This document shows positions 3,061 to 64,000 of a stretch of DNA of 64,000 nucleotides, one piece after another (position 1 is the first letter of the stretch; each line of letters starts with the position of its first letter). The translations under genes and the position numbers were made by a program. This DNA comes from Dehalococcoidia bacterium (lineage in GTDB: Bacteria; Chloroflexota; Dehalococcoidia; Lucifugimonadales; UBA3495): NCBI GenBank assembly GCA_965261945.1, contig CBDHEF010000002.1, positions 1,999,327 through 2,063,326 of the forward strand. Reading direction: 5' to 3'. The notes beneath the pieces were generated by a model. The model was not told the DNA's origin. It saw only the letters and a list, made by a program, of their open reading frames with translations, and made no database searches.

Positions 3061-4107
3061 CTATTCCTCTTTGGGAGGGCGGCGAACGGGAGGGCGGCGA
3101 ACAGGATGGCGGTCAACAGGATGGCGGTCAACAATGACCCGCCCCCGTTCTACACCCAGCTTCATCCGTTCGTACTCCGAGGAGAATTCGGCCCCGGCTA
3201 TGAGTATCAGGCCGGAGAAGTAGGTCCAGGCCAGCAGCACGATAACCGAGGCCAGGGAGCCGTAGACCTCCTCGTAATATGCAAAGTGGTCCAGATAGAG
3301 GACGAAGGCGCTCTTGAACACCTCAAACAGCACCGCTGCCAGCACCGCCCCCGGCCAGATGTAGCGCCAATACGTGAGAGTGTTCGGCGTGAACTTGTAG
3401 ATAAGCAGGAATATGGTCAGCGAGAACAGGAAGGGCAGCGGGCGAGTCAGCAGGTTGATAACGCCATTGTCCAGGAATTGGTCGCGCCCTATTACCGGCA
3501 CGTTGTGAGTGCCCAGAAATTGCAGAGCCGCAGTGGTGCCGATGGACAAAAGGAACAGGGGGGCGACGCTGAATGCCATCAGGATATGGCGCAGCTTGTC
3601 TATGTAGAAGGGCCGGTCCTGTTGTATGTCCCAAGCCCGGTTGACCGCTCTGGTGATGGCGCCGAACAACAGGCTGGCCGACCAGAACAGGCCGAGAAAG
3701 CTGACAATACCCAGAAAGCCGCGAATGCTGCCCCTGGCCTCCACGTTGGAGGCAAGCAGCTCTTTGGAGCCAGGCAGATAGAGCTGGAAAAATCCGAAAA
3801 CCTCCCCCTCCAGGAACTCCGAGTTCAGCACGAGGCCCAGCAGGCTGATCAACCCGACTGTGAGCGGAAAAAGGGAGAGGACTGCATAGTAGGCCACCCC
3901 CGCCGCCATGTGTGTCGCGTCGTCGGCCCCCATCTCCCGCACTGTCCGGTACACCAGACCCACCGCCGGAATGGCAATCAGCCGCCGCCAGAACCGCCGG
4001 GCGCGTACGCGGACTTTCAGATAGTCGCGGTTGTGCGCCACCCTTCTCCGGAACCGCTCGAAAGGGGTGGTCAGCGTTGATTTGAGGCGTGCCGGAAATA
4101 TCAGCAT
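3061..4107 (-). CDS. YihY/BrkB family membrane protein
   Basis: Track ORF 3061..4200. MAAGVAYYAVLSLFPLTVGLISLLG...FLGLFWSASLLFGAITRAVNRAWD is typical of YihY. I prefer the start at M32 (4107) because the longer ORF runs through a terminator hairpin at 4135-4157. The C-terminus carries 4 tandem 15-bp units (VDRHP VDRHP VRRPP VRRPP). Confidence 0.85.
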   Translation of the reverse strand: MLIFPARLKSTLTTPFERFRRRVAHNRDYLKVRVRARRFWRRLIAIPAVGLVYRTVREMGADDATHMAAGVAYYAVLSLFPLTVGLISLLGLVLNSEFLEGEVFGFFQLYLPGSKELLASNVEARGSIRGFLGIVSFLGLFWSASLLFGAITRAVNRAWDIQQDRPFYIDKLRHILMAFSVAPLFLLSIGTTAALQFLGTHNVPVIGRDQFLDNGVINLLTRPLPFLFSLTIFLLIYKFTPNTLTYWRYIWPGAVLAAVLFEVFKSAFVLYLDHFAYYEEVYGSLASVIVLLAWTYFSGLILIAGAEFSSEYERMKLGVERGRVIVDRHPVDRHPVRRPPVRRPPKEE

Positions 4108-4774: not shown

Positions 4775-5114
4775 AGCTCTTCCTCTCTTCTCCGAAACGC
4801 TGTAGACGGGAATTCGCAAAACCAAGCCATATCAGTTTACCATAGTGGGTGTGATTGGTTTGAGATTTCCGGCTTAAGGAGACTGCCGATAGCAGGGGGA
4901 ATTCCCCCGTCGGCTGCGGCAGGACGGGGGAATTGTGGAGGCATGAGCGTCATCCAGCGCAACGCCGGAGCAAGTTCCCCAAACGGCTCCGTCCTATCCG
5001 CGCCCTCCGTCTGCTTCCGCATATATAAAAAGGGGCTGCGAAAGTCTAAACTTCACCCAACGCATGAATCCTCTTCGGGCGGTGGTGACGCCGCTTGGAG
5101 CCGGGGGTAACCGG

Positions 5115-6999: not shown

Positions 7000-7785
7000 T
7001 TATTCCCAGACTTGACCCGCGATTGAGATCGCGTTCAGAGCTGCGGGATAGCCCGCGTATCCTCCGGTCTGCATGAGGACTTCCACAACTTCATCCTTGG
7101 AAAACCCCACGCGGAGGCCGGCCTGCAGGAAGTTGCGGAGCGGGCCATCGGCTCGCAGGGCCGTCAGGGCGGCGGTGGTGCATACCACCCTGGACTTCAG
7201 GTCCAGCCCCGGGCGGAAGAAGATCTCCCCAAACGCAAACTGGTAGGTGAGCGCCCGCAGGTCCGGCGCGAGGTCCACCAGGGCGTTGGCATAGCCGCCC
7301 CGGTCCTCAGTGCCCAAAAGCTGCTCCCGAAGCTCGCGGCCCCGTCGCTCCATCTCTTCCAGGCTGACTTCGGGCACCTCAGTCTGCGGCGCCTCGATGC
7401 CCCTCTCGCGGAAGGCCTCGTGGACCAACTCCAGCGAGTTGACCGCCGACGGGAACCCGGCATAGAGGGAGCAGTGTATTGGCACTTCCTGGATCTCCTC
7501 CGCGCTCATGCCCATGTTCAGCGCGCTGTGAACGTAGGTCTGAAACTGGGAGAGGCGTTGCAGCGAGGACAGGACGGAGAGGGTCGCCAGCATTCGATAC
7601 CGAATGTCCAGGCCGGGACGGGCCCACACCGCTCCGAAAATCGCCTCTCCGGTGTAATTCCTGAGACCCGGGATGCTGGCCACAGCCCTGGGCCGCTCCC
7701 GGGCCGGGTAGGCGCCGTGCTGCAGGCGCTCGCGTATCTCGTTGCCCTTCCGCCGGAGTTCCTCTCGACTGCTCATCGTTACCAT
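7000..7785 (-). CDS. Carboxymuconolactone decarboxylase (AhpD-like) family protein with two CMD repeats
   Basis: GEAIFGAVWARPGLDIRYRMLATLSVLSSL...EEIQEVPIHCSLYAGFPSAVNSL and a second copy FGEIFFRPGLDLKSRVVCTTAALTAL...VEVLMQTGGYAGYPAALNA. The start is uncertain (M24 at 7785 or M27 at 7776). Confidence 0.8.
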   Translation of the reverse strand: MVTMSSREELRRKGNEIRERLQHGAYPARERPRAVASIPGLRNYTGEAIFGAVWARPGLDIRYRMLATLSVLSSLQRLSQFQTYVHSALNMGMSAEEIQEVPIHCSLYAGFPSAVNSLELVHEAFRERGIEAPQTEVPEVSLEEMERRGRELREQLLGTEDRGGYANALVDLAPDLRALTYQFAFGEIFFRPGLDLKSRVVCTTAALTALRADGPLRNFLQAGLRVGFSKDEVVEVLMQTGGYAGYPAALNAISIAGQVWE

Positions 7786-7913
7786 CCCAATTACCTTGTG
7801 TTCAGATCGCGCCCCAGTATACTCCATGAGGGGCGTCGCGAAATGCGCCGGCATGGGAGATACCCCGACGGTGTTAGAATACTGCCCAACGAGAATTCCC
7901 GGAGCGGTTGATT

Positions 7914-10910: not shown

Positions 10911-11321
10911 GTGATTAACACCTTTTGGGAGTGGTGGTCTAATCATTGGCTCCGGTTTCAAGCGATAGCCGCCCCGATAGGTTCGCTCCTAGTAACGCTT
11001 GGGTTATCACAGATTGAAAGCGTGGGGTGGTGGTGGAATTCTTGGAACGAGCTGGAAGTAGCAGCCAGCTTCGCATCCATTGGGGTTCTGTTTTATACAG
11101 CGTCCTTTGCGTCGCTCGAAATGGTGGTGATACTCATGGTCTTGGGTTGGAAAGTAAAGGAATACTTCAGCAAAAAGGAAAAAGAGGCGAACAAAGAGCT
11201 TCTCCGCAGTATGGCTAAATCGGGAGACATCGACCTTAACAGAGTTTCTGACACTACCTTGCGCAGACTTGGCCTAAGTAGATCTGACCTGAAGGAACTA
11301 CGGCAAGAGCAGCTAGTCTAA
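10911..11321 (+). CDS. Hypothetical membrane protein (passenger ORF)
   Basis: Trp-rich N-terminus with about 3 TM segments (AIAAPIGSLLVTLGL, VAASFASIGVLFYTASFASLEMVVILMVLGW) and a charged C-tail. GTG start. Low GC. Confidence 0.45.
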   Translation: MINTFWEWWSNHWLRFQAIAAPIGSLLVTLGLSQIESVGWWWNSWNELEVAASFASIGVLFYTASFASLEMVVILMVLGWKVKEYFSKKEKEANKELLRSMAKSGDIDLNRVSDTTLRRLGLSRSDLKELRQEQLV

Positions 11322-12265
11322 TCCGCGGTCAAAGCACCATAGGTCAACCGCTTCCCCTCTGCACCCTTCACCATCGCCGCCATCTGGTCCGCCGTGTCCA
11401 TCGGCCTTACGTTGTGCCTATCCTCAAACTCACTGGCGTACCGCCCCAGGTGCTTAACCGAGATATGGTGGTAAACCCCGTCGATCCCCCGCTTGAACGT
11501 AGCCCAATGGCTCTCCATCCCGTTTGTATGAGCCATCCCCCGGACGTACTCGCCAGCACCGTGAGCGACAGCCTCATGGTGTCGGGGAATGCCCGTATAC
11601 GCCGATGCCTCGTCGGTGTAGACCACCGCATCCTCGGTTGTGTGCTTCAACATGAATCCTTGGAGCGTGGCCTTGTTGGTGGATTCCACGACCTCGGTGT
11701 GGACCTGGCTGGTCTTCCGGTCCTTGACCCCGACCACCGGAGCCTTCCCCACGGCCCCGCGCCCAGCCCGGAGCTTCTTGTCCTCGTGCTTGTTCTTCTC
11801 CAGCCCGCCGATGTAGGTCTCGTCGGCCTCGACCGGGCCAGCGAATTTCTCGGCGGTTTCGTCTTCCCAGGTCTCGCGGATGCGGTGCTCCATGAACCAG
11901 GCCGACTTCTGTGTAATGCCCAAGTCCCGGTGCAGCTTCATGGAGCTGACGCCCTTCAGGTTGGTGGACATCAGGTAGAACGCCAGCGCCCATTTCCGCA
12001 GTGGAATCTTGGAATCCTCCATGATGGTGCCGACCTTGACCGTGAAGTCATACTTGCAGGCGTTGCAGTGATACACCGGGGTTGTGCGGGTGGACTTGCG
12101 GCGCGCCACCCTATCGCTTTCACATTCGAGACACCGGATGCCGTCCAGCCAGCGGCGGGCCACGAACCAATCATTGGCCTTCTCGCCGTCGCCGAACTGC
12201 TCCAGGGCGTCAAGGAGGCTGATGCCCTTGCGGTAGTGTTTGCCGGGGGCGTTTTTTGCGGCCAT
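11318..12265 (-). CDS. IS1595 family transposase (ISXO2-like DDE domain with N-terminal zinc ribbon)
   Basis: WLDGIRCLECESDRVARRKSTRTTPVYHCNACKYDFTVKVGTIMEDSKIPLRKWALAFYLMSTNLKGVSSMKLHRDLGITQKSAWFMEHRIR...ADETYIGG...VYTDEASAYTGI...HTNGMESHWATFKRGIDGVYHHISVKHLGRYASEF. Confidence 0.9.
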   Translation of the reverse strand: MAAKNAPGKHYRKGISLLDALEQFGDGEKANDWFVARRWLDGIRCLECESDRVARRKSTRTTPVYHCNACKYDFTVKVGTIMEDSKIPLRKWALAFYLMSTNLKGVSSMKLHRDLGITQKSAWFMEHRIRETWEDETAEKFAGPVEADETYIGGLEKNKHEDKKLRAGRGAVGKAPVVGVKDRKTSQVHTEVVESTNKATLQGFMLKHTTEDAVVYTDEASAYTGIPRHHEAVAHGAGEYVRGMAHTNGMESHWATFKRGIDGVYHHISVKHLGRYASEFEDRHNVRPMDTADQMAAMVKGAEGKRLTYGALTAD

Positions 12266-47435: not shown

Positions 47436-47912
47436 CCGGTGCCGGGTCAGCCGTATCTGCAAAGCCTTCTGTGAAACCTGTCCGTCCTGAGCCAGTCAGA
47501 GGATGGACGGGTTTCACTTGCCTGCAACCCATCCAACCGCCCACCCTGCGAAAAGCTCACGACGAACCGCCAAAAGGACTCGATCGACTTTTCAACCACT
47601 CTGTTTGCTGACAGCAGGCGGTTGACACTCTTTTGTCTGTCCCCATAGCATCGGTGGACGATACTATGGTACGGAAACGGCCCCTCCATTATTACAACGA
47701 CGGATCACAAGAAAAGGACCCTGAGCACCTCTTCATGGCGACCTGCCCACGCCCGTGGCAGCCTTGCGGCCTTGCCTTTCGCGAAGCGATTTCCGGCCAA
47801 AAACTGACCAAATCGAAGAAGCGTCGTTGTAATACTAGAAATCTGGCCGGAAAGTGGAGTCAGCCCGGCCGGCGGCTATACTTGGGGTCAACAAGGGTAG
47901 CGAGGGCTGAGA

Positions 47913-48225
47913 ATGCTGGGAGAGCGGTCGGAGCAGAGGGGTCTGTGGGAAGCGGACCGGTTGTATCTGGACCACGTCGGCAAGGACACCTTCTACGGTC
48001 TGCTGGCCTCATTGCGGGGCCGGCTGTTCCGGGACGCCGATTTCGCGGTGTTCTTTCGCGGCGTTCTACTGCGCCGACAACGGCCGGGATAGTGTGCCGC
48101 CCAGCCTGCTGGCGGCGGCTCTCCTGCTCCAGTCCCACGACAAGACCAGCGACGCCGAGGCCAAGGCCCGGGCCGACTTCGACATCCGCTGGAAGGTGGC
48201 TCTGGGGATTGGCTCGGTGCAGGCA
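47913..48225 (+). pseudogene. N-terminal remnant of an IS5/IS1182-type transposase (DUF772-like), frameshifted and truncated
   Basis: MLGERSEQRGLWEADRLYLDHVGKDTFYGLLASLRGRLFRDADFA, then a 13-bp tandem duplication (48042-54 and 48055-67). The next frame reads FYCADNGRDSVPPSLLAAALLLQSHDKTSDAEAKARADFDIRWKVALGIG. Homology stops at about 48225. Confidence 0.6.
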
Positions 48226-48392
48226 AGGGCGACCAGCAACATGGCAACCCCGGCGACAATAGTGAAGACCATCTTCAGCATGGCCGCCACGATAGCATAT
48301 ATCCCTGCTCCAATGCACTGGCCGCCGCCATCTGCCCCACCCGCCCCTTACGTGGTAGGATACCGGCAACACTCGTTATGGAGGAAAGCGGT

Positions 48393-49160
48393 ATGGCCAT
48401 GGATGTTCAGGTTTATACCCAGCCTGGTTGATTCTCCTGCCGGACTCTGGAAGAGTTCCTCAAGTCCAACGGTATTCCTTACGAACATCACGACCTGCTC
48501 AGCGAACCCGCCGCGGTGGAGCATCTGCGCAGCCGCGGAATCAAGTCGCTGCCGGTCACCATCATCGACGACACAGAGGTCATCATCGGCTACTACCCCA
48601 AGAAGCTGATTCCGGCCCTGAAGCTGGATGTGTCCGTTGACCTGTCGGGCAAGACGGCGTGGCTGGCCGAGAAGTACGACGCAATAATGAGTGCGGCTGT
48701 GCGAGCCAACAACCAGTTCAGCCAGGAGCAGCTCGACACCATCGTACCCTGGCGGCCCTGGAGCCTGCGCGACACCGTGCTGCATATCCTGGCGTTCCCG
48801 GAGATCGCCTACCTGTCACACGAGGTGGGCAGCATGAGCTGGGACGATATGCAGGCCCAGGACAAACGGCTCGAAGGTGTCACCACCGCACCGCAGATTG
48901 CCGAGTACGGACTAAAGGTGCGCGACGACATCATCGCCTTCCTGGACAGCGGCAATACCGCGGGCTTCGAGCGCGAGGTGCCGGCCCACTACGGCGGCGA
49001 AGTGACCGTTCTGGAGCTGCTCAACATCGTGCTCAGCCACAGCACCCACCACCTGAAGCAGGTTTATCACTACATGACCACCGACCTCGGCATGACCTTG
49101 GAGAACCCGGCGACCGAGGCCGACCTTGACGGTATCCAGACACCGGACGCCCTTATCTAA
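48393..49160 (+). CDS. Glutaredoxin/NrdH-like domain fused to a DinB-like domain, with an in-frame TGA at the first CxxC position (candidate selenocysteine, or a nonsense mutation)
   Basis: The RBS GGAGGA (48380-85) lies 7 nt before the ATG at 48393. MAMDVQVYTQPG-TGA(48429-31)-FSCRTLEEFLKSNGIPYEHHDLLSEPAAVEHLRSRGIKSLPVTIIDDTEVIIGYYPKKL continues in the same frame as track ORF 48516..49160 (...VLHILAFPEIAYLSHE...LNIVLSHSTHHLKQVYHYM). Confidence 0.6.
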
Positions 49161-49240
49161 CACGCAATGACGCAAGGGCGCAACGCCGCATTGGAAATCT
49201 TTGCGCCCCTGCGCCTTTGCGTTTCATTAAGGAGCCAACG

Positions 49241-50788
49241 ATGAAATATGACTATATCGTGATTGGCGCCGGTTCCGCCGGTTCCATCATCGCCACACGG
49301 CTGACCGAGGACCCCAACGTGTCGGCGCTGCTGTTGGAGGCAGGGCCGGACTACCCGGACTTCGAGCAACTGCCGGAGGAAGTGAAGTTCGGTTACTCCA
49401 CCGAAATCGACATCATGGTCAGCGACCACAACTGGCAGTTCACCGGCAAGGCCACCGAGAGCGCCCCACCGATGATGGTGCCGAGGGGCAAGGTCACCGG
49501 CGGCTCCAGCGCCATCAACGGTCAGGTCTTCCTGCGCGGCGTGCCGGAGGACTACGATTCGTGGGCCGAGATGGGCAACAATGAGTGGGGCTACACCGAC
49601 TGCCTGCCCTACTTCCGCAAGCTGGAGACCGACACCGACTTTCCCGACGATTTCCACGGCACCGACGGCCCCATCGTCTGCCACCGCTTCAAGCCGGAGA
49701 CGTGGCACCCGGCACAGCATGCGTTCTATGCCGCCTGCCGGGAGGCGGGGTTCCCTGACAGCCCGGACCACAACAACCCGGACTCCACCGGCGTCGGCCC
49801 TACGCCCTTCAACAACCCCGGCGGCGTGCGCATGAGCACCGCCCTGGGCTACCTGGACCAGGCGCGCCACCGTCTGAACCTGACCATCCGCGCCAACTGC
49901 CACGTCCAGAAGATACTGTTCGACGGCAACCGCGCGGTGGGCGCTCGTGTGGAGAGCGGCGGCGAGACCTTCACTGTCGAGGGCGACGAAATTATCCTCA
50001 GTTCCGGCGCCATCGGCTCGCCTCACATCATGCTGCTGTCCGGCATCGGTCCGGCGGCCCACCTGCGGGAGTTCGGCATCCCCGTGGTGGCCGACCTGCC
50101 CGGCGTGGGCCAGAACCTTCGTGATCACCCGCTCGTGTGGGTGACCTGGCGCACGAAGCCGGAGATTCCGCTGGACGGCCTGGCTCCCCGGATGCAGGTG
50201 ACCCTGCGTTACACTGCCGAAGGCTCTGACCTTCGCAACGACATGAAGATGTCCATGCAGTCCTTCGCCACCGAGCGCATCAATCGTGGCGGCGACCGCA
50301 TGGAGCCTGTGGGCATCCGCCTGACCAGCGGAATCCAACTGGCGGCGGGCGCGGGCGAGCTGCGGTTGCAATCGGCTGACCCGGCGGAGCAACCGTTCCT
50401 CGACTACCGCTATCTGGAAGACCCCTTCGACCTGGAGCGGCTGCGGGAGACGGTGCGCCTCTGCGTCCGGCTGGGTGAGAGCGACGCCTTCAACGACATC
50501 ATCCAGGAACGCATCGAACCCACCGACGCCGAGCTGGCCACCGACGAGGCCCTGGACGAGTACCTGTTCCGCGAAGTCACAACGTCGCAGCACGTTTCCT
50601 GCACCGCCAGGATGGGACCCGCCGACGACCCCATGGCTGTGGTCAGCCAGTACGCCAGGGTTCACGGTCTTGAGGGCCTGCGTGTGGCCGACGCCTCCAT
50701 CATGCCCGACTGCATCCGCGCCAACACCAACGTGACCACGATGATGATCGGCGAGCGGGTGGCGGAGTTCATCAAGGCGGGGAAGTAG
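49241..50788 (+). CDS. GMC family oxidoreductase (choline-dehydrogenase-like)
   Basis: MKYDYIVIGAGSAGSIIATRLTEDPNVSALLLEAGPD...GKVTGGSSAINGQVFLRG...HVSCTARMGP...GLRVADASIMP. AAGGAG precedes the ATG at 49241. Confidence 0.9.
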   Translation: MKYDYIVIGAGSAGSIIATRLTEDPNVSALLLEAGPDYPDFEQLPEEVKFGYSTEIDIMVSDHNWQFTGKATESAPPMMVPRGKVTGGSSAINGQVFLRGVPEDYDSWAEMGNNEWGYTDCLPYFRKLETDTDFPDDFHGTDGPIVCHRFKPETWHPAQHAFYAACREAGFPDSPDHNNPDSTGVGPTPFNNPGGVRMSTALGYLDQARHRLNLTIRANCHVQKILFDGNRAVGARVESGGETFTVEGDEIILSSGAIGSPHIMLLSGIGPAAHLREFGIPVVADLPGVGQNLRDHPLVWVTWRTKPEIPLDGLAPRMQVTLRYTAEGSDLRNDMKMSMQSFATERINRGGDRMEPVGIRLTSGIQLAAGAGELRLQSADPAEQPFLDYRYLEDPFDLERLRETVRLCVRLGESDAFNDIIQERIEPTDAELATDEALDEYLFREVTTSQHVSCTARMGPADDPMAVVSQYARVHGLEGLRVADASIMPDCIRANTNVTTMMIGERVAEFIKAGK

Positions 50789-50891
50789 GGGCGGCGGGCT
50801 TGCCTGTCGTCTGGGTTAAGATTTGCCAGACAGCTATGAAAAATCCACAGCCGGACAGGTAATCCCTGTTCAGGCGGCAGGCAGTCCAGCT

Positions 50892-51512
50892 ATGGAAAAA
50901 GTGTTCATCTACTGGGACAATTCCAACATTTTTATCAGCGCACAACAAGTCGCAATAGAGCGCGAGGGCGAGGCGGTTCGATACCGGGCTCGCCTTCACT
51001 TCCGGAATATGATGGAGTTGGCCCGCGCTGGGCGAGACATAGAGCGGGCTATCGCTGTCGGTTCCATTCCGCCTGAACTGCGGCACGTCTGGAACCGGTT
51101 GGAAAATGAAGGGTTCACGGTCCAGTTGCTGGAACGCGGCGCCATACAAGGCCGTGAACAAGGCGTGGACCAAGCGTTACAGACCGTTATGTTGCGAGAT
51201 ACCGTGGACTATAACGGAGATCCGGGAATCGCGGTGCTACTAACCGGCGACGGCAGCGGCTTCGCCGACGGCGTAGGGTTTCATGCCGACTTGGAGCGAA
51301 TGCGCAACCGCGGCTGGCGCATAGAAGTCTTGTCGTGGCGGCATAGCTGCAACCGCCGGATGCGAGAGTGGGCGGAAGAGTACGGCTCTTTCATCGCTTT
51401 GGACGACTTCTACGACAGCGTAACATTCCTGGAGCCGCCCGCCCCCGGGCAGACCGTCGCCAACCCTCGCTACGCCACGCCGCCTGACCTGTCGCGGCGG
51501 GCGATGGGGTAG
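50892..51512 (+). CDS. NYN (LabA-like PIN-fold) domain protein
   Basis: MEKVFIYWDNSNIFISAQ...AIAVGS...VDQALQTVMLRDTVDYNGDPGIAVLLTGDGSGF...GWRIEVLSW. Confidence 0.7.
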   Translation: MEKVFIYWDNSNIFISAQQVAIEREGEAVRYRARLHFRNMMELARAGRDIERAIAVGSIPPELRHVWNRLENEGFTVQLLERGAIQGREQGVDQALQTVMLRDTVDYNGDPGIAVLLTGDGSGFADGVGFHADLERMRNRGWRIEVLSWRHSCNRRMREWAEEYGSFIALDDFYDSVTFLEPPAPGQTVANPRYATPPDLSRRAMG

Positions 51513-51623
51513 TAGGAAACCTTAGTCAGTTTAGGAAAAATTGAGTGAAACTCTCCTACTACAATGCTGTTTCATTTGGCCTTTAGGCTCACACCTTGAA
51601 AAGTGCGGCCCCTTGTCTTGTGT

Positions 51624-52025
51624 TTAGCTCAGGATGGTTTTTAGAAGGCAGGATAGGCTATCGTCCAGCGTCTGGCACTCCCACACCACTACGGAAGTCC
51701 AGCCCAATTCGCGCAATAGCAGCCGGTTTGAGGTGTCGCGGCGCTGATTGCGAGCAATTTTTTCACGCCAGTAGTCAACGTTGGTCGCGGGCATACGGTC
51801 GCCGCGTTTGCATAAGTGACCGTGCCAAAAGCACCCGTGAACGAACAGCGCGATCCGGCGTGACGGAAACGCTAAGTCTGGTTTTCCCGGCAGGTCTTTG
51901 CGGTGCAGGCGGTAGCGATAGCCTATCCGGTGGGCGGTTTTACGAACCCGCATCTCCGGCTTGGTGTTTTTTGACCGGACGCTCGCCATGATACGGCTGC
52001 GGGTGGCTGCATCAACTTTGTCCAT
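51624..52025 (-). CDS. vsr: Very-short-patch repair endonuclease
   Basis: RSRIMASVRSKNTKPEMRVRKTAHRIGYRYRLHRKDLPGKPDLAFPSRRIALFVHGCFWHGH...NVDYWREKIARNQRRD...GWTSVVVWEC. Confidence 0.9.
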   Translation of the reverse strand: MDKVDAATRSRIMASVRSKNTKPEMRVRKTAHRIGYRYRLHRKDLPGKPDLAFPSRRIALFVHGCFWHGHLCKRGDRMPATNVDYWREKIARNQRRDTSNRLLLRELGWTSVVVWECQTLDDSLSCLLKTILS

Positions 52026-52770
52026 GAATAGTTATCCAATCTTGTCGATACCTGACACTTGCTAAAATACTGTCGACAGGAATGACAGGAATGGTTTGCG
52101 TTATGGAGAATTTTTTCGACGATTCAGGTACCGGACGATGGATTGTAAACTGGCTACCATGAGGCTGCCAGGTGAACTGATGTCTGTTAGTTGTGCGGTC
52201 ACGTCCAACTAAATTACCATTTTTGTTGAAACTCCACTCGTATTCTGCTGGAATGTATCTGCTTGCTTCTTCTTCAAAGATTAAAAATTCGCGAGTGTCC
52301 AAGTTCCTAATCATCACCACGACACGCAAATCGTTGAACTGATCCAAAGCTTCATCCACACGGGCATTCCAAACTGAAACGACGGCGTGTCCAGTGGTTT
52401 CGGGATTCTCACGAGGATTTTCTATCCCCACAGAGTAGTTGGGAGAATTTCTGCCGGAAATTAACCGAGCAACTCTTTTCCCGAAGGGTCTTTTCTCTTT
52501 GATAGTCTTGATAGACCAAGCGCATCCATTGGCGACGACATCAGCGACTCCAAGAGGGCTTGCCCTATGTTCCCCACCGATTGCTGTGGCAAATATCGTG
52601 CCAAAATCATCGCCGCTAATGTCAGCTTGGCCGATGGCTATTCGGTGGACGAGTTGTCGTCCAATTTCAAGTATGATTTCGTTAGAAATTTGCCCCAACG
52701 GGTACGGGCCAGTTCTCCTGGGAGCATTTCCCCTCAGTCTGGGATTGTCCAATGGATTGTCCGAGGACAT
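52012..52770 (-). CDS. Putative type II restriction endonuclease (family not recognised)
   Basis: It sits between the C5-methyltransferase and vsr in one overlapping operon. AAGGGG precedes the ATG at 52770. It contains GDDFG...PLGVADVVANGCAWSIKTIK, a possible D...SxK nuclease motif. It overlaps the MTase 3' end by 89 nt and vsr by 14 nt. Confidence 0.5.
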   Translation of the reverse strand: MSSDNPLDNPRLRGNAPRRTGPYPLGQISNEIILEIGRQLVHRIAIGQADISGDDFGTIFATAIGGEHRASPLGVADVVANGCAWSIKTIKEKRPFGKRVARLISGRNSPNYSVGIENPRENPETTGHAVVSVWNARVDEALDQFNDLRVVVMIRNLDTREFLIFEEEASRYIPAEYEWSFNKNGNLVGRDRTTNRHQFTWQPHGSQFTIHRPVPESSKKFSITQTIPVIPVDSILASVRYRQDWITIHGQS

Positions 52771-53701
52771 CAAGCACCCCTTTTATAGCGGCCTCCGCCA
52801 TAGGGACTGGAACGGCGTTTCCCGCTTGTTTTTTGGTTTGGGAATCGTTGCAAACAACCTCAAAAGCATCAGGAAACCCTTGTAGCCGCAACATTTCCCG
52901 GGGCGTTAAGCGCCGCTCCCCGTCAACTAACAGGTAGTTGTAGGAAGCGCCCGCCCGCAAAGCGCACGACCATTCGTAGCTGGAAATGTGCCCTCCCTTG
53001 TTCTCATGCCAAATTGACGGCGTAGCAGTCGGCTTATGAGCTGCGTGGCGCTTGGCGCGAATCCGCCCGGAGACGAAATGCTTGGGGTCAGGATTCTCTT
53101 CGAGAATCTCTGATAGCGGCTTTATTGTAGCCTTACCAATAGGCCAGGGAAATTCCTCGAACGGCTCTAGTGTGGCGACTATGATAGTTCGTTCACGCTT
53201 TTGGGGGAGACCCAAATCGAGTGCATTCAGTATTCGCCAATCCGTGGTGTACCCCATCTCTTTCAAAGGATTGAGGATGTCTTTAAGCACTGCGCCGCGT
53301 TGAGCGGTGGCGAGCTGCTTCACATTTTCCAAGACAATTCCTTGCGGTTTCTTGTCTTGAGCTATACGCAAGATTTCCTTGTAAAGTGTCCCCCGCGGAT
53401 CATCAGTCCCTAGTTTGTTGCCGATAATGGAAAACGGCTGACAGGGAAACCCAGCGAGCAGGATGTCGTGGGCTGGAATGTCTGACGACGGAATGGCTAC
53501 TATATCGCCGCTCGGCCATGTGCCAAAATTATGTTGATAAGCCCTTCGCGCCTCGTCGTCAATGTCGCAGGCGAACACTACATTCAGCCCAAGATTCGCT
53601 GCTGCGGTATGAAATCCGCCGATTCCGCAGAACAAATCGGCGCATCTCAGCGCGTTGTCTCGACGCGCCGCTTGCGAAGGAGCATAGGGCGCGTCGAACA
53701 T
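52682..53701 (-). CDS. DNA (cytosine-5)-methyltransferase
   Basis: Motifs DLFCGIGGF (I), GFPCQPFS (IV), IVLENV (VI), QKRERTIIV (VIII) and GNAVPVPM (X). The start is taken at M39 (53701) of track ORF 52682..53815. Confidence 0.9.
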   Translation of the reverse strand: MFDAPYAPSQAARRDNALRCADLFCGIGGFHTAAANLGLNVVFACDIDDEARRAYQHNFGTWPSGDIVAIPSSDIPAHDILLAGFPCQPFSIIGNKLGTDDPRGTLYKEILRIAQDKKPQGIVLENVKQLATAQRGAVLKDILNPLKEMGYTTDWRILNALDLGLPQKRERTIIVATLEPFEEFPWPIGKATIKPLSEILEENPDPKHFVSGRIRAKRHAAHKPTATPSIWHENKGGHISSYEWSCALRAGASYNYLLVDGERRLTPREMLRLQGFPDAFEVVCNDSQTKKQAGNAVPVPMAEAAIKGVLDVLGQSIGQSQTEGKCSQENWPVPVGANF

Positions 53702-53839
53702 TGAGTGAGTTTCTTGTATGTAGCGCAGGGCAACGCCGCTCGACATAACACATATTCCGGCAATCTGCAAGTAATTGACCGTGCGCATTCTGCCAATTTT
53801 GGCGAACTGTGTCAATCAGGCGTTGTCAGTGCCTCAATC

Positions 53840-56727: not shown

Positions 56728-58383
56728 TTATGGGGGGTTGAGCCTGCCGATGGTTCCGTCAATATAGAGGATTTCTACTGTGCGGGTAACGGCAGCTTCC
56801 AGTTGCGCACGGGCTGGCTGACCCAGCCCTTGCCCCAGGCGGTCCACCAGCGACGATACCGATGTCTGGCCGTCGGTGAATGACACGAGGGCGGCCACAA
56901 GCTCGCTGCACGGCATACCTTCGGGCTGGGACACTGCGCTCAGGCTGTAACCCCAGACGAACTCGCCCTCGGCCAGCACCGGCTTGCGAGCTACGTGAAC
57001 CCCCTCGGCCAGCCGGGGGACGGCGTTCAGTATTTGATTGCGCTGGGGGTCCGACCGCAGGCCGTTGATGCGCTGTACCCGCTCTGCTCTTTCTTCCTCC
57101 ACGGCGCGGACGCTGGCGACGAACTCGGCTGGCGCTTCGCCCCGGTCGAGCACCGCCCGCTCGTAGCCGCGCGGGGGCTGGCCGGCGACCGCCTGGATGA
57201 AGCTGTGGCGGGGCGAAAACTGGTTCTCGCCGGTGATGCGCCGGGCTTCCCAGAAGTAGGAGTCGGAGGTGAGATTGCTGGCATAGAAGAGCCGGGCCAT
57301 CTCGCGGAACTGGTTGTATTCCTTGTAGTAAAGTTCCTGGTAGACCTCGCCGGCGCTTTCCCGCAATTGCTCGTCGCCCTGTTCGGCGGCCTTCAGCGCG
57401 GTGGTGGCGTAGGCGGCGGCCATTACGCCAGACATCAGCGCCAGATGCACCCCCGACGAGAACAGTGGGTCAACGAAACAGGCCGAGTCGCCGGTCAGCA
57501 CGTATCCCGGCCCGGTGGTGCGCTCCGCCGAATAGGACCAGTCGCGTACGACCTTCGGCTCGGACGCCCATCGTGCATTGGCGAGCTTGGCGGCGGTATG
57601 CGGAGCTTGCGATAGCTGCGAGGACAGAAATTCCCTCGCTCCCAGGCGTTGAATTCCCTCCTGCCCGGTGCGGTTGTCCACCACCGCGCCCACGCTGCTC
57701 CATCCAGTGTGCAGCGGGATGCTCCAGAACCAGCCGTGTTCGTAGGCCTCGATGAAGATGTTGTTTTCGTCTGGCGGGGGCAGCGGCTTCGCGCCTTCGA
57801 AATAGGCGTATACCGCCAGATTCTGGAAGAAGGAATCCCAGCGGCGCGTTCCCGTCTGCCGGGCCAGCAGCGCTGCTTGGCCGCTGGCGTCCACCACGAA
57901 CCGGGTCGACAATTCGCCAGGCCCGCCGTTGTCCGCGACATAACGGACTGTCGCCGGAGAGCCAGATTCGCCAAACTCTACGTTGCCGACCCGGCAGCCC
58001 TCCCGCACATCTACGCCGTGGGCGCGGGCGTTTTCCAGCAGTATGTGGTCGAAGGTCGGGCGCCATACCTGGTAAGCGTGAGGGTACTGGAGGCTGGTCT
58101 CCCGGAAGCTCCAGCTCCACGGCTCGGGGTCGCGGCCCCAGACCATGCTCGCGCCGTACTTGGGCAGGAACCCAGCCGCCTGCACCGCCTCCATCGCACC
58201 CAGCTCCTCCAGCACCGGCATGGACGCGGGGAGCAGCGATTCGCCAACGTGCTCGCGGGGGAAGCGCTCCCGCTCCAGCAGCACGACGCGCCACCCCTGC
58301 CGCGCCAGCATGGTGGCCGCGGCGCTGCCGGCGGGCCCGCCGCCGATGACGGCTATGTCTGTGGTTGATCCAGCAGTGGTCAC
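56728..58383 (-). CDS. FAD-dependent oxidoreductase with flavin-dependent-halogenase signature motifs
   Basis: DIAVIGGGPAGSAAA (GxGxxG), LPKYGASMVWG (Lys-containing strand), HGWFWSIPLH (WxWxIP) and CFVDPLFSSGVHLA (FxxPxxSxG-like). Confidence 0.7.
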   Translation of the reverse strand: MTTAGSTTDIAVIGGGPAGSAAATMLARQGWRVVLLERERFPREHVGESLLPASMPVLEELGAMEAVQAAGFLPKYGASMVWGRDPEPWSWSFRETSLQYPHAYQVWRPTFDHILLENARAHGVDVREGCRVGNVEFGESGSPATVRYVADNGGPGELSTRFVVDASGQAALLARQTGTRRWDSFFQNLAVYAYFEGAKPLPPPDENNIFIEAYEHGWFWSIPLHTGWSSVGAVVDNRTGQEGIQRLGAREFLSSQLSQAPHTAAKLANARWASEPKVVRDWSYSAERTTGPGYVLTGDSACFVDPLFSSGVHLALMSGVMAAAYATTALKAAEQGDEQLRESAGEVYQELYYKEYNQFREMARLFYASNLTSDSYFWEARRITGENQFSPRHSFIQAVAGQPPRGYERAVLDRGEAPAEFVASVRAVEEERAERVQRINGLRSDPQRNQILNAVPRLAEGVHVARKPVLAEGEFVWGYSLSAVSQPEGMPCSELVAALVSFTDGQTSVSSLVDRLGQGLGQPARAQLEAAVTRTVEILYIDGTIGRLNPP

Positions 58384-59413: not shown

Positions 59414-60697
59414 TTAATCGGCGTTATGGCCGCCCTCGGCGCTGGCGGTTTCGTCGGGGAATGGCTTGCCGGTGGCCGGGTTGACCTCGAAGGAGCCGGG
59501 CAGGTCCAGTTCTTTCGCGATTTCCTTGACCGCCGGGATGACCTCTTCGCCCATCAACCTCAGGCTGCGCATGGAGTCGTCGTGGGTCATGGCGCCGTCG
59601 CCGTCCCAGAAGAAGACGCTGCCGGGGCGGAGGTATTCCAGCACGTGGCGGATCTTGGGTATGACCGTCTTGGGGGTGCCGCAGATGATGGTGTAGTCGG
59701 CGATCTGCTGCTCATAAGCTCGGCCCAGAACGCCGGCGGCGCTGGCCGGGCCGCCACGGGCCGCGGTGGCGCTGCCCTGTGTCGGCAGAACGCGGCGGCG
59801 GGAGGTCAGGCCCGGCAGGTTGACCAGCGCCGGGTTGGTGGTGCCTTCGTTGCCCGCCAGGAAGGGGTTGCTCGGCCCCTGCACGAACTTGCGTCCGGCG
59901 GCCTCCGCCAACTCTTCGGTCTCGTCTACGTGCACCTTCCACAGGTAGCCGAGGTTCTGCGGGCCAGACTCGTAGCCCTGATCCGCGGCGGTGTCGTGGT
60001 ATAGCTGGAAAGCCGCCTTGGTCGGCTCAAGCTCGGTGGAGAGCATGATGTAGGGGATGCGCTTTTCGGCAGCCCACATCAGCGAGTCGCGGCTGATTAC
60101 GCCGGGGAGCCAGACCTGCGGGTGGGGCTTCTGGTAGGGCCGCGCCCACGGGTTGACGTGGCGATACTGGAAGTGCTTGCCCTCCCAGCGGAAGGGACCG
60201 GGGGTGGTCCAGGCCTTGACGATGAACTCGTGGGCCTCCTGGAACCGCTCCCAGTTATAAGGAGGAGGCGCGTTATGGGCCACGCTCTCGCGTCCGGTGC
60301 CGCGCACCCAGCCGGAGACCAGCCGCCCGTGGGAGATCATGTCGATCATCGAGAGCTGCTCAACCAGCCAGAGCGGGTCGTCCCAGATGGGGATGATATT
60401 GCCCAGCAGCACTATCTTGGCGCGCTTGGTAATGCGGGCCAGGATGGACGCCTCGACGTTCATGGCGCCGCCCATACAGAAGGGGGTGCCGTGGTGCTCG
60501 TTGAGCATCAGGCCGTCGAAGCCCATCTCCTCGGCGTAGAGCTTCTCGTCGAGGTAGCGATTATAGAGGCTGGCGCCCAACTTAGGGTCGTAAATCTCGT
60601 TGCTGACGGTCAAGTCCATGATGGGCTTGCCGGTGGCGCCGAAGTACCCGGATTCCGGGTCTTGGTAAGGCCGCTCGGTGAAGTATCCGATGTGCAT
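59414..60697 (-). CDS. LLM-class flavin-dependent oxidoreductase (large subtype)
   Basis: MHIGYFTERPYQD...GFDGLMLNEHHGTPFCMGGAMNVEASILARITKRAKIVLLGNIIPIWDDPLWLVEQLSMIDMISHGRLVSGWVRG. Confidence 0.85.
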   Translation of the reverse strand: MHIGYFTERPYQDPESGYFGATGKPIMDLTVSNEIYDPKLGASLYNRYLDEKLYAEEMGFDGLMLNEHHGTPFCMGGAMNVEASILARITKRAKIVLLGNIIPIWDDPLWLVEQLSMIDMISHGRLVSGWVRGTGRESVAHNAPPPYNWERFQEAHEFIVKAWTTPGPFRWEGKHFQYRHVNPWARPYQKPHPQVWLPGVISRDSLMWAAEKRIPYIMLSTELEPTKAAFQLYHDTAADQGYESGPQNLGYLWKVHVDETEELAEAAGRKFVQGPSNPFLAGNEGTTNPALVNLPGLTSRRRVLPTQGSATAARGGPASAAGVLGRAYEQQIADYTIICGTPKTVIPKIRHVLEYLRPGSVFFWDGDGAMTHDDSMRSLRLMGEEVIPAVKEIAKELDLPGSFEVNPATGKPFPDETASAEGGHNAD

Positions 60698-62421: not shown

Positions 62422-64000
62422 TCACTCGATGAAGTATACGAAGCGGAACCGGGGTATTACCAGCGGCGAGAGCAGCCACCCCTTGATGTAGGGCTTGATG
62501 AGGTAATGGTCGCCCTTGGAGTGATACAGCGGGGCCCAGGGAGCGCCGTCCAGAATCATTTGCTCGGCCTCCCGATAGAGAGCGAAGCGGGCATCCTGGT
62601 CCTGTTCCACGCGGGCGCGCTCCAGTATCACATCCAGTTCTGGGTCGCTGTAGTGGGTGTGGTTGTTATCGCTTCCGGTGTGGAAAAGCGCGTCCAGGAA
62701 GTTTTCCGGGTCCGGGTAGTCTGCAATCCAGCTCAGTCCGCCGAAAATCTGGAAGCGCCTCTCGCGAAGGTCTTCGAGGTAGGTTGCCCACTCGGTTTGC
62801 AGCAGGTCGATCTGGATGCCCAACTGCTCTTTCCAAGTTGCGATGATGACTTCCATGATCGGGTCAACGGCCGAGCCAAAGGAGCCGGGCAGGGTCATGG
62901 TGATGTCCGGATAGTTGGCGGTGTCGCTGCCGTACTTGGACTCCGCCAACAGTTGGCGCGCCTTTTCCGGGTCGTACTTATACCCCAACAGGGCGGGGTT
63001 GTAGCCGGGAAAGCCGGGCGGGAGTATCCCCCTGGCCGGCACCACCGCGTCTTCCAGCAGCGCCTCTGTCAGGGTTTCCCGGTCGATAGTATAGTTGAGC
63101 GCCAGGCGGACGTTTACGTCGTCAAAGGGCGGCTCGTTGGCGTTCATCCCAATGTATGCCACGTCGAACTCGGGCGGCCCTTGGTGGAACTGGTCATTCA
63201 GCGGGTTGGTTGGGTCTTGGAACATCTCCAGCGCGGATATTCCGACAGCTCCGGCGTGAAGTTCGTCGTTCTCGTACATCAGCAGGCCATCGCCGCCCGC
63301 CAGGTTGAATTCAACGGCGTCCAGCATGGCCGGGCCGAGATGGTAGCCGTCGAAACGCTCCAGGCGCATCAGTACGCCGGGGTCGTATTCGGTCAGCATG
63401 AAGGGACCGGTGCCGTTGGGCGCCTTCACCCAGTCCCGCCCCGTTTCCACGTTGGCGCGGTCAACTACGAAGGATGTGGGGTAAGTCAACTTGGACAGGA
63501 AGTAGGCCTTGGGCGCGTCGATGTCAATTCGCAGCGTCTTCTCGTCGATCACGCTGATGCCGGAAATCGAGTCTGCTTCGCCGTTCAGCTTGGCCTCGAC
63601 CCCCACTATATCGCCGAGGAAGGTGTCCACTGCGGGGGCCTCGGTGGCCGGGTCGGAGGCGCGCTCCAGAGACCATTCCAAGTCGGTGGCGGTGACTTTG
63701 CGGCCGTCGTGGAACGTAACGGAGGGATTCAGGCGGAAGGTGTAGCCCATGCCGTCGGCGTCAAGCTCCCACTCCTGTGCTATGTCGGGCACGATGGCGA
63801 GGTCGGGGTCGATGGTGAGTAGCCCGCCAAAAACCTCAAGTATGTAGCGAGAAGATGTGGCGTCGCCGGTTTGGTGAGGGTCCAGAGTGGGCGGGTCGCT
63901 GCCCAGCAACTTGAGTACGCCGCCTTCGACGGGGGTTCCCTTGAGTTCCCTCTCTCCGGAAGAAGCCGTGCCGCCGCGCGGCTCTCCCGTGGGCTCCGGC
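62422..64000 (-). CDS. ABC transporter substrate-binding protein, family 5 (peptide/nickel type); the 5' end lies beyond the window
   Basis: GSDPPTLDPHQTGDATSSRYILEVFGGLLTIDPDLAIVPDIAQEWELDADGMGYTFRLNPSVTFHDGRKVTATD. The reading frame stays open upstream of the tracked start (63909) to the window edge. Confidence 0.85.
   Translation of the reverse strand, partial: PEPTGEPRGGTASSGERELKGTPVEGGVLKLLGSDPPTLDPHQTGDATSSRYILEVFGGLLTIDPDLAIVPDIAQEWELDADGMGYTFRLNPSVTFHDGRKVTATDLEWSLERASDPATEAPAVDTFLGDIVGVEAKLNGEADSISGISVIDEKTLRIDIDAPKAYFLSKLTYPTSFVVDRANVETGRDWVKAPNGTGPFMLTEYDPGVLMRLERFDGYHLGPAMLDAVEFNLAGGDGLLMYENDELHAGAVGISALEMFQDPTNPLNDQFHQGPPEFDVAYIGMNANEPPFDDVNVRLALNYTIDRETLTEALLEDAVVPARGILPPGFPGYNPALLGYKYDPEKARQLLAESKYGSDTANYPDITMTLPGSFGSAVDPIMEVIIATWKEQLGIQIDLLQTEWATYLEDLRERRFQIFGGLSWIADYPDPENFLDALFHTGSDNNHTHYSDPELDVILERARVEQDQDARFALYREAEQMILDGAPWAPLYHSKGDHYLIKPYIKGWLLSPLVIPRFRFVYFIE

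Follow-up and report, generated by a model that had tools for sequence, protein, structure and literature searches.

A glutaredoxin-DinB fusion gene with a conserved in-frame TGA very likely encodes a UxxC selenoprotein in Dehalococcoidia

Main finding

The gene at positions 48393 (or 48399) to 49160 of the window, i.e. the whole 64,000-nt stretch of Dehalococcoidia DNA analysed here, is very likely a genuine selenoprotein in which a glutaredoxin (Grx) domain is fused to a DinB domain and whose UGA would be recoded via SelB and an mRNA stem-loop. The present study established the conservation of the TGA, the conservation of the frame on both of its sides, the pairing of selenocysteine (Sec) with Cys in homologous proteins, both protein folds, the RNA stem-loop and the linkage with a gene for a GMC-family flavoenzyme. 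Because the same TGA stands at the catalytic Cys column in 80 of 80 species, it is not a mutation, and judging from these alignments it almost certainly encodes Sec.

Gene model and features of the protein

The features of the gene and its product are the following:

48393..49160, forward strand: full coding sequence of the probable selenoprotein, a Grx(UxxC)-DinB fusion; by translation 255 codons including Sec, then TAA
48380..48385, forward strand: Shine-Dalgarno-like GGAGGA, 7 nt 5' of the ATG at 48393 and 13 nt 5' of the ATG at 48399
48405..48575, forward strand: glutaredoxin/NrdH-like thioredoxin-fold domain (Pfam PF00462, aa 5-61; as a fold it reaches about aa 76)
48429..48431, forward strand: probable Sec codon TGA (U13), first position of UxxC; conserved TGA, aligned with the Cys of homologues
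48438..48440, forward strand: resolving Cys codon TGC (C16) of UxxC, from the translation; aligned with C16, which is invariant in the Cys forms
48714..49064, forward strand: DinB_2/YfiT-like four-helix-bundle domain (Pfam PF12867, aa 108-224, and PF05163)
48783..48785, forward strand: codon of His131, first member of the putative metal-binding His triad; invariant, aligned with H130 of the Cys forms
49038..49052, forward strand: H216-S-T-H219-H220 motif (HxxHH); invariant, with H216 and H220 as putative second and third metal ligands

The frame at 48393-49160 reads MAMDVQVYTQPG*FSCRT..., has its sole in-frame TGA at 48429-48431 and ends with a TAA (49158-49160); ORF 48516-49160 of the mechanical list lies in the same frame. 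A preliminary description of this DNA had given these coordinates, the GGAGGA at 48380-48385 with its 7-nt spacing and the frame with one TGA, all of which were borne out on re-reading. The second ATG, at 48399, is the start conserved across orthologues, since codon -10 from the TGA is ATG in 75 of 81 copies and codon -12, the ATG at 48393 of the window, in only 32 of 81. Hence, the product is about 253-255 aa long, depending on whether translation begins at 48393 or 48399. GGAG-type motifs are also found 5' of the start in other loci, and the full gene length is conserved in the 80 species. The IS debris that had been suspected directly upstream was not confirmed, as the ORF fragments 47633-48262, 47913-48092 and 48094-48260 gave no Pfam match. 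When the whole window was searched for a second candidate with an in-frame TGA in a redox motif, none was found; the hits were noise, from GC-rich DNA read in non-coding frames.

Conservation of the TGA at the catalytic position

The column of the catalytic residue is TGA in 80 of 80 loci from 80 GTDB species, and in addition in the window and in locus L081. These species belong to the Dehalococcoidia/SAR202 group, many of them sponge-associated, together with two Entotheonella, and their proteins are 65-96% identical, a divergence because of which the 80 loci cannot be one contaminating sequence. In all 80 species the frame is conserved on both sides of the TGA, and the amino acids are maintained with synonymous variation upstream (V-8, V-6, Y-5, T-4) as well as downstream. 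Neither TGC nor TGT occurs at this column anywhere in the Sec clade, and none of the best 120 protein clusters (at least 63% identity) has Cys there. As many as 118 of these clusters were called as shortened proteins of 176-238 aa with varying starts; the two full-length calls are L081, in which TGA was read as W, and a copy with CGA on a '2x' contig. The Trp protein P0109 and the Arg protein P0094 were rejected as natural non-Sec variants, the former because the DNA shows TGA where the gene caller wrote W, the latter because its CGA lies on the error-ridden 2x contig with fragmented neighbouring genes.

The resolving C16 is the only Cys in the protein and is Cys in 81 of 81 copies (TGC in 77, TGT in 4). 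Downstream of the TGA, 243 +/- 1 codons follow in 81 of 82 copies, and the gene is terminated by TAA or TAG in 78 copies and by TGA in the other 4. Ordinary TGA stops also end two Pfam-verified genes of the window (5064-6899 and 62422-63909). One orthologue, L052, has an extra premature TAG.

Both domains and the Cys-containing homologues

The fusion of Grx and DinB domains proposed in the preliminary description is confirmed by Pfam, where both parts score above their cut-offs: Glutaredoxin PF00462 reaches 38.7 bits (cut-off 22.9, E 1.1e-9, profile positions 1-58 of 60), DinB_2 PF12867 41.6 bits (cut-off 24.8, E 2.1e-10) and DinB PF05163 25.5 (cut-off 23). The DinB part is strongly conserved and carries no further disabling mutations. 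In the Grx part, UFSC at 13-16 and P54-V55-T56 are invariant, and the cis-Pro region LPVT is conserved. The AF2 model used here is that of the homologue P0109, 64% identical to the window protein; its pLDDT is 80.4, mostly >90 in the DinB half and below 50 at residues 14-17, so that the model is weak at the active site. It displays the thioredoxin-fold order beta-alpha-beta-alpha-beta-beta-alpha and then long helices at 88-107, 126-146, 167-185 and 207-232. The Grx half matches PDB entries 7c10, 3zij and 1h75 by sequence, and 7c10, 3zit and 1h75 (cGrx1/NrdH) in Foldseek with TM values of 0.7-0.82; in the alignment with 7c10, a solved Grx, the TGA falls on the first Cys of CPHC, the nucleophilic Cys of Grx/NrdH structures. 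Assignment to a specific curated Grx subfamily (NrdH, YruB, mycoredoxin, Uxx-star) was sought in NCBIfam, where every match stayed under its cut-off (54.3/88.6, 50/85.8, 36.9/66 and 34.6/89.5), the best Uxx-star score being 36.9 against 66. The DinB half matched 3dka, 1rxq, 2p1a, 6iz2 and 8f5v with a Foldseek probability of 1.0, and 2nsf was matched as well.

Fourteen distant full-length Grx-DinB homologues carry PGC[ST]SC, i.e. a CxxC motif, and run uninterrupted through the point of the TGA. Sec and Cys forms were aligned by hhalign over 247 columns with a probability of 99.95% (E 1.2e-37), which pairs U13 with C13, C16 with C16, H131 with H130, H216 with H212 and H220 with H216; C13 and C16 are invariant in the Cys forms. 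The residues H131, H216 and H220 are invariant in both forms and may represent a metal-binding His triad. In the DinB-like structure 3gor, the segment aligned with HSTHHLKQ is DHEIHHKGQ.

A conserved stem-loop downstream of the UGA

The RNA element 3' of the UGA has the following parts:

48436..48474, forward strand: SECIS-like stem-loop (MFE fold, pairing counts, RNAalifold)
about 48436-48441 with 48470-48474, forward strand: basal helix (RNAalifold)
48442-48446 with 48463-48467, forward strand: lower stem GGAC(N)/(N)GUCC (MFE, pairing counts, RNAalifold)
48449-48452 with 48456-48459, forward strand: upper stem (MFE fold)
48453-48455, forward strand: apical loop GAG, beginning 21 nt after the A of the UGA

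The lower stem is paired in 88-99% of 73 distinct sequences. At the pair 48446/48463, U-A occurs in 39 and G-C in 26 sequences, a score matched by 0 of 500 shuffles, while a G.A mismatch occurs in 5; on the gene tree this compensatory change amounts to about 2 independent switches. RNAalifold recovered the same lower stem together with the basal helix, with a weak consensus energy of -2.55 kcal/mol and a covariation term of -0.79. Among 82 MFE folds, 63 contain the conserved stem and 59 an apical loop beginning with G. The stem-loop of the window has an MFE of -11.6 kcal/mol; on average the element reaches -12.9 kcal/mol, compared to -9.4 kcal/mol when other windows across the gene are folded, which makes it only moderately more stable (median rank 0.19). 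Folding 48429-48490 alone, as had been suggested beforehand, gave a result no better than shuffled sequence (z = 0.12).

The preliminary description had placed a hairpin, GGACUCU-GGA-AGAGUUC, at 48442-48458. It exists, and so does a conserved 3' stem-loop, but this short hairpin is not the conserved element, which is longer and has two or three tiers (about 48436-48474). As a SECIS, the 7-bp hairpin was rejected, because 3 of its 7 pairs are broken in 30-44% of the sequences (22-32 of 73) and do not covary. A terminator-like hairpin 5' of the UGA (48407-48427) was likewise discarded; it lies inside the coding sequence, and its pair G48410-C48424 is lost in many variants with His/Gln(CAA) at codon -7.

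Synonymous sites around the TGA are constrained: Gly-1 is GGT in 81 of 81 copies, Pro-2 CCT in 76 of 81, Arg+4 xGG in 81 of 81 and Ser+12 TCC in 75 of 80. The stem-loop model does not account for the strong constraint on the wobble positions of the two codons 5' of the UGA.

Selenium machinery and genomic neighbourhood

The genes selA, selB and selD and tRNA-Sec were not found in the 64-kb window or within the flanks (3 kb) of 60 loci, and a search of the window and the locus flanks for Rfam families returned none. With a genome size of about 4 Mb, this absence carries no information. The Sec machinery of the lineage is documented in the literature on related genomes. The genome of L079 is listed with 46 selenoprotein genes in BSepDB (PMC13326102), Slaby et al. 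(PMC5649159, Table S4) show SelA, SelB and SelD in each of their five SAR202 bins from sponges, and a full Sec gene set is reported for Entotheonella (PMC11703216).

Next to the Grx-DinB gene lie:

49241..50788, forward strand: GMC-family FAD oxidoreductase, MftG-like (Pfam GMC_oxred_N and GMC_oxred_C), preceded by AAGGAG at 49229-49234
49162..49222, no strand assigned: imperfect inverted repeat of 22 nt within the 80-nt spacer that separates the two genes, with arms 49162-49183 and 49201-49222 that are 86% complementary

The GMC gene is found directly downstream on the same strand in about 69 of the 80 loci, with 73-94% identity. Its product matches the NCBIfam model TIGR03970 (MftG) over the full length with 401.8 bits, barely above the cut-off of 387.45. 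Mycofactocin biosynthesis genes mftA-F were absent among the about 45 window ORFs scanned with Pfam. The linkage was rejected as a family-wide trait, as the Cys forms sit in other contexts without a GMC neighbour. Within the Sec clade, synteny suggests that the selenoprotein probably shares one pathway with the adjacent MftG-like dehydrogenase.

Alternative readings

A pseudogene, in which one TGC-to-TGA nonsense mutation killed a Cys-type Grx-DinB gene, possibly tied to IS activity, was the alternative considered in the preliminary description. TGC and TGA differ by one base, IS remnants were suspected upstream, and the L052 orthologue carries its additional TAG; however, the occurrence of TGA in 80 of 80 species at 65-96% identity, with conserved frame and amino acids on both sides and neither TGC nor TGT in the clade, refutes such a mutation, the DinB part is intact with its constant number of codons after the TGA (243 +/- 1 in 81 of 82 copies), and the upstream IS remnants were not confirmed by Pfam. 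The chance of a pseudogene is thus negligible. It is also very improbable that the TGA is a real stop that ends a 12-codon leader peptide and is followed by a separate, shorter DinB protein. All public gene calls begin after the TGA, and in NCBI and JGI the product goes by the name 'DinB family protein', but no downstream start is conserved among these calls, which have lengths of 201, 211, 214, 220, 221, 228, 233 and 237 aa, and at the codon with which the 237-aa calls start, 45 copies, that of the window among them, have CTG. With any downstream start, the Grx fold would be cut and would lack both beta-strand 1 and the nucleophile of the active site, yet the 12 codons before the TGA vary synonymously while their protein sequence (VYTxPG) is conserved, and the Cys-form homologues are continuous at this point.

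It might further be assumed that the UGA is read through without Sec, by near-cognate suppression (Trp, Cys, Arg) or after a lineage-specific reassignment of TGA, given that Sec machinery was not found in the window, that one gene caller translated the TGA as Trp (P0109, P0140, P0174) and that the evidence for a SECIS is moderate, not overwhelming. A reassignment is contradicted by the fact that TGA terminates 4 copies of this very gene as well as the verified window genes 5064-6899 and 62422-63909, whereas Trp or Arg in place of the catalytic Cys of CxxC would destroy function. Moreover, the lineages are documented Sec users, one carrier genome being among the most selenoprotein-rich known, and a stem-loop with the geometry of a bacterial SECIS lies 3' of the UGA, which leaves non-Sec readthrough with a slight chance. 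The UxxC selenoprotein reading put forward in the preliminary description is therefore supported by the TGA, and not TGC, in all 80 species, the aligned Cys homologues and the conserved stem-loop.

Proposed mechanism and relation to known systems

According to the selenoprotein reading, SelB with Sec-tRNASec would bind the mRNA stem-loop at about 48436-48474 directly 3' of the UGA, and the UGA at 48429-48431 would be recoded to Sec by the standard bacterial route. Zhang and Gladyshev (2005) are reported to have laid down a consensus for bacterial SECIS elements in bSECISearch. The element found here resembles bacterial SECIS of the E. coli fdhF type (for an example structure see BSepDB, PMC13326102) in being a stem-loop that starts a few nt after the UGA, whose tiered stems are separated by internal loops, whose small apical loop carries G at its first positions and lies about 20 nt 3' of the UGA, and whose energy is lower than about -7.5 kcal/mol. 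Compared with known SECIS, it shows covariation at one pair only, with about two events, and the likeness is one of geometry, as no similarity is expected at the sequence level.

The Grx part resembles the UxxC Grx and Grx-like selenoproteins (Grx of Clostridium/Alkaliphilus oremlandii, the Sargasso Sea/GOS selenoproteomes, NCBIfam Uxx-star) in its thioredoxin fold with Sec as N-terminal nucleophile right after beta-strand 1, in the in-frame stem-loop after the UGA and in the existence of Cys-containing homologues. Those proteins are stand-alone and about 70-100 aa long, whereas here the domain is fused to a DinB domain of 170 aa with a putative metal site, and the window protein falls below the cut-off of every NCBIfam Grx or selenoprotein model. 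A search for an NCBIfam model or a paper describing a Grx-DinB selenoprotein found none. DinB/YfiT superfamily members use a His-bound metal together with a low-molecular-weight thiol. With the enzymes of this group (YfiT/BstA of B. subtilis, 1rxq; mycothiol S-transferase of M. tuberculosis, 8f5v; mycothiol-dependent maleylpyruvate isomerase, 2nsf; DR0053 of D. radiodurans, 6iz2) the second half shares the four-helix bundle (Foldseek probability 1.0, TM 0.65-0.76 on target), the invariant His triad and the HxxHHxxQ signature, but the sequence identity is only 14-19%, and H143, H199 and H219 are extra invariant His residues of the Sec clade only. The known members lack a fused redoxin and work with a thiol that is free to diffuse (bacillithiol, mycothiol, glutathione), whereas here the selenol/thiol pair is tethered to the bundle. 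The order of a Trx/Grx-like N-domain and a helical domain is also that of canonical glutathione S-transferases, to which weak whole-chain Foldseek matches were obtained; however, the helical domain is a DinB bundle and not GST_C, and homology was dismissed because of an RMSD of 13-18 A and TM <0.35, so that this likeness is an analogy.

By analogy with the thiol S-transferases and isomerases of the DinB superfamily, in which a metal serves to position or activate the thiol, the U13/C16 pair may act together with a metal ion bound by the His triad, with the U13 selenolate as attacking nucleophile and the subsequent formation of a selenenylsulfide with C16. The biochemical function that we infer might be, for example, to process or detoxify an electrophilic product of the GMC enzyme or to recycle a redox partner. 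Going further, the selenoprotein and the MftG-like GMC flavoenzyme could form an obligately Sec-dependent two-gene module, i.e. an undescribed selenoenzyme system of marine and sponge Dehalococcoidia and of Entotheonella, in which a tethered selenolate acting at a His3-metal centre would make up a 'self-contained' metal-dependent selenol transferase or reductase coupled to the GMC oxidation of an alcohol or a mycofactocin-like cofactor. This is a speculative and rather unlikely scenario; if it were true, it would represent a new catalytic use of Sec, beyond another antioxidant redoxin.

Implications

Public annotation shortens the protein in every case seen and lists it as 'DinB family protein', whereby the redox domain is removed and a selenoprotein carried by at least 80 species of an abundant lineage of marine bacteria and sponge symbionts goes unnoticed. 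Its recognition corrects these gene models, extends the bacterial selenoproteome by a fusion architecture in which a redoxin is joined to a putative DinB metal site, and adds to the indications that Dehalococcoidia of the SAR202 type make heavy use of selenium. Furthermore, the conserved pairing with a GMC/MftG-like flavoenzyme provides a concrete starting point for the search for a substrate, and a thiol partner that is covalently attached, invariant and apparently upgraded to selenium offers a clue to the poorly understood chemistry of the DinB fold.

Reading frame and domain structure

The gene at 48393-49160 (+) starts with an ATG that follows the GGAGGA ribosome-binding site (48380-48385) named in the preliminary description. 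It translates as MAMDVQVYTQPG*FSCRTLEEFL..., contains a sole in-frame TGA (48429-48431) and ends with a TAA (49158-49160). When the translation was searched against Pfam with Cys put in place of the in-frame stop, both domains were matched, which confirms the proposed fusion of glutaredoxin and DinB in one frame:

Glutaredoxin, aa 5-61: 38.7 bits, cut-off 22.9
DinB_2, aa 108-224: 41.6 bits, cut-off 24.8

The N-terminal 75 residues correspond to a NrdH/YruB-like glutaredoxin fold and the C-terminal 170 residues to a DinB/YfiT four-helix bundle; U13, encoded by the TGA, and C16 are the only Sec/Cys residues of the protein. Foldseek matches of the redoxin part were cGrx1 (7c10) and NrdH, while the bundle matched YjoA (3dka), YfiT (1rxq), DR0053 (6iz2), the mycothiol-dependent maleylpyruvate isomerase (2nsf) and the M. 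tuberculosis mycothiol S-transferase (8f5v). Moreover, HSTHHLKQ was aligned with the DinB signature DHEIHHKGQ of 3gor.

Conservation of the TGA codon

Among about 5.8 billion protein clusters, 996 relatives were detected, and 118 of the best 120 (63-94% identity) are N-terminally truncated calls of 176-238 aa, the starts of which are scattered just past the TGA column. DNA was compared for 80 relatives, one per GTDB species: two Entotheonella and otherwise Dehalococcoidia/SAR202 MAGs, of which many originate from sponge projects and many are represented by complete chromosomes of 3-5 Mb. The alignment revealed TGA at this column in 80/80 species, with VYTxPG-TGA-FSCRT[LV]EEFL kept on both sides at protein identities of 65 to 96%. 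Across the 12 codons upstream of the TGA, the amino acids are kept while synonymous sites vary, Val-8 occurring in all four codons; therefore, this segment is translated in the same frame. Further disabling mutations are almost lacking, since the frame after the TGA stays open for 243 +/- 1 codons in 81/82 copies. Judged from these sequence patterns, the in-frame TGA is evidently no accident.

In the exceptional copy, L052, an AAG located 11 codons past the Sec codon has become TAG (about 3070). Locus L082 shows CGA (Arg) instead of TGA (4031-4033); its contig is of low coverage and contains numerous fragmented genes. Assembly error or decay of the copy is the probable cause in both cases. Two apparent full-length non-Sec variants were artefacts: the DNA of protein cluster P0109 ('W' at the column; locus L081) has TGA, and P0094 ('R', codon CGA) stems from a contig labelled 2x, on which each neighbouring gene is split into pieces. 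One MAG (Chloroflexota bacterium B73T1L10) holds two different gene copies (L057 and L070), whose proteins share 68% and 65% identity with that of the window and which are either paralogues or the result of a mixed bin. More diverged clusters (P0127, P0129, P0132, P0133, P0135, P0174) are called as truncated at the same point or have 'W' at the column, e.g. VYYRPGWFTCGRTKEFL, which suggests further Sec-containing subfamilies beyond the analyzed clade.

The preliminary description had weighed a TGC-to-TGA nonsense mutation inactivating the gene next to insertion sequence debris. This explanation is refuted by the occurrence of TGA in all 80 species between two conserved flanks, and the supposed debris at 47633-48262 has no Pfam match. 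As to a different genetic code, TGA terminates two Pfam-verified genes of the window (5064-6899 and 62422-63909) and is the terminal stop in 4/82 copies of the Grx-DinB gene itself, hence it is not reassigned. A real stop followed by a downstream restart agrees with the public truncated calls but is not credible, because the called starts differ between orthologues, the commonest one is a CTG codon in the window clade, and every one of them would cut the glutaredoxin fold and remove the nucleophile. Elsewhere in the window, at 11318-12265 (-), a seemingly intact IS1595/ISXO2-like transposase was found (DDE_Tnp_IS1595, E 3e-37).

Pairing with Cys-containing homologues

An HMM was run exhaustively against 1.84 billion cluster representatives and identified distant proteins of full length that share the two-domain architecture and carry CxxC, e.g. 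VYWQPGCSSCLRVKEFL. When the profile of the Sec clade was compared with that of 14 of these Cys forms (probability 99.95%, E 1.2e-37, 247/255 columns), U13 aligned to the invariant Cys13, C16 to the invariant Cys16, and H131/H216/H220 to the invariant H130/H212/H216. Only the C/UxxC pair and the His triad are invariant in both forms. In an alignment with the solved dithiol Grx 7c10, the TGA likewise falls on the first Cys of its CPHC motif. Such Sec-for-Cys alignment with homologues is the classic selenoprotein signature. Hence, the TGA shared by all 80 species, the Sec/Cys pair and the frame conserved on both sides bear out the originally proposed UxxC selenoprotein, and we regard a real, conserved selenoprotein gene as highly probable.

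DinB-superfamily proteins combine a low-molecular-weight thiol with a metal that is bound by three His. By analogy, the tethered selenol/thiol pair of the fusion might act at or next to the putative His3-metal site. The AF2 model, built for homologue P0109 (64% identical; pLDDT 80.4, pTM 0.74), is unreliable at residues 14-17, i.e. where the Sec-to-metal geometry would be read.

RNA element downstream of the UGA

Synonymous sites near the UGA are unusually fixed: GGT encodes Gly-1 in 81/81 copies although the gene otherwise favours GGC, and CCT encodes Pro-2 in 76/81 instead of the usual CCC; likewise, xGG codes for Arg+4 in 81/81, TCC for Ser+12 in 75/80 and GTT for Val+15 in 58/64. The 7-bp hairpin at 48442-48458, first suggested as SECIS, is present in the sequence but is not the conserved element; three of its 7 pairs are broken in 30-44% of distinct sequences without compensatory change. 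A longer SECIS-like stem-loop suits all sequences better:

Basal helix, about 48436-48439 with 48470-48473 (RNAalifold)
Lower stem, GGAC(N) 48442-48446 with (N)GUCC 48463-48467, paired in 88-99% of sequences
Upper stem, above the lower stem
Apical loop, GAG(U), starting 21 nt after the UGA

Its geometry matches a bacterial SECIS. The pair 48446/48463 is U-A in 39 and G-C in 26 distinct sequences, a score reached by 0/500 shuffles; on the gene tree this represents only about 2 switches, and five sequences have G.A and two U.G. The stem appeared in 63/82 MFE folds and a G-first apical loop in 59/82, with a mean energy of -12.9 kcal/mol versus -9.4 for windows elsewhere in this gene (median rank 0.19). 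Folding of the region after the UGA in the window itself was no better than shuffled sequence (z = 0.12). Collectively, these comparisons lend the stem-loop real but modest evolutionary support. It does not account for the near-fixed wobble positions in the two codons that precede the UGA (48423-48428); these may reflect a UGA-context effect on recoding.

Selenocysteine machinery

Among the approximately 45 window ORFs scanned with Pfam no SelA, SelB or SelD was found, the sole tRNA of the window is tRNA-Gly, and the flanks of 60 loci contained no tRNA-Sec. Literature on related genomes fills this gap in part. The BSepDB top-ten table includes the very genome that carries locus L079, Dehalococcoidia bacterium 10f4566d-ab44-49ae-b774-fc9f760c6436, with 46 selenoprotein genes, and also Dehalococcoidia UBA1141 with 49 (PMC13326102). 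Slaby et al. (2017; Table S4, PMC5649159) list SelA, SelB and SelD for each of their five SAR202 bins from sponges, and the complete set of Sec genes is present on Entotheonella chromosomes (PMC11703216).

Genomic neighbourhood

A GMC-family FAD oxidoreductase (49241-50788, +) lies directly downstream in the same orientation in about 69/80 loci (73-94% identity); genes upstream are not conserved, and the GMC neighbour is absent beside Cys-form relatives. It scores just above the cut-off of the NCBIfam MftG (mycofactocin dehydrogenase) equivalog TIGR03970 over its full length (401.8 versus 387.45), and no mftA-F genes were seen among the scanned window ORFs. Further features are:

49162-49222, imperfect 22-nt inverted repeat (86% complementary, 17-nt spacer) in the 80-nt gap between selenoprotein stop and GMC start
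50823-51512, NYN-domain protein
51624-52025 (-), Vsr mismatch endonuclease
52012-52773 (-), ORF without Pfam match, possible restriction enzyme
52682-53815 (-), C5 cytosine methyltransferase
5064-6899 (+), redox-type DUF255/Thioredox_DsbH fusion with GlcNAc 2-epimerase-like domain
7000-7854 (-), redox-type double CMD (AhpD-like) protein

The repeat may act as an attenuator or as a terminator lacking a T-tract, or it may be REP-like. The genes at 50823-53815, after the selenoprotein-GMC module, likely form a restriction-modification islet; the NYN gene follows the GMC gene in only 7/80 loci. AhpD-like proteins are frequent selenoproteins in marine bacteria, and no in-frame TGA was seen in the window's copy. 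A flavin-dependent tryptophan-halogenase-like enzyme (56728-58383, -) and a luciferase-like monooxygenase (59414-60697, -) are also encoded, as is typical of SAR202-type genomes.

Novelty and significance

New selenoprotein families of the UxxC-redoxin type are regular finds. Grx and Grx-like UxxC selenoproteins have been known for long (PMC2398784, PMC13188914). Our literature search found no relevant link between DinB and a selenoprotein, the table of a 2026 review has no DinB, YfiT or PF12867 entry, and no NCBIfam model matched the Grx-DinB protein at its cut-off. Public product names read 'DinB family protein' for the truncated forms and 'glutaredoxin' or 'hypothetical protein' for the Cys forms; the Grx part may appear under a non-specific name in the homology-driven BSepDB. 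We regard the kind of UxxC redoxin as already known and the fusion architecture, the obligate Sec clade and the conserved GMC partner as new. Follow-up work is worthwhile in view of the fusion to DinB, the extent of the mis-annotation and the link to the GMC gene.
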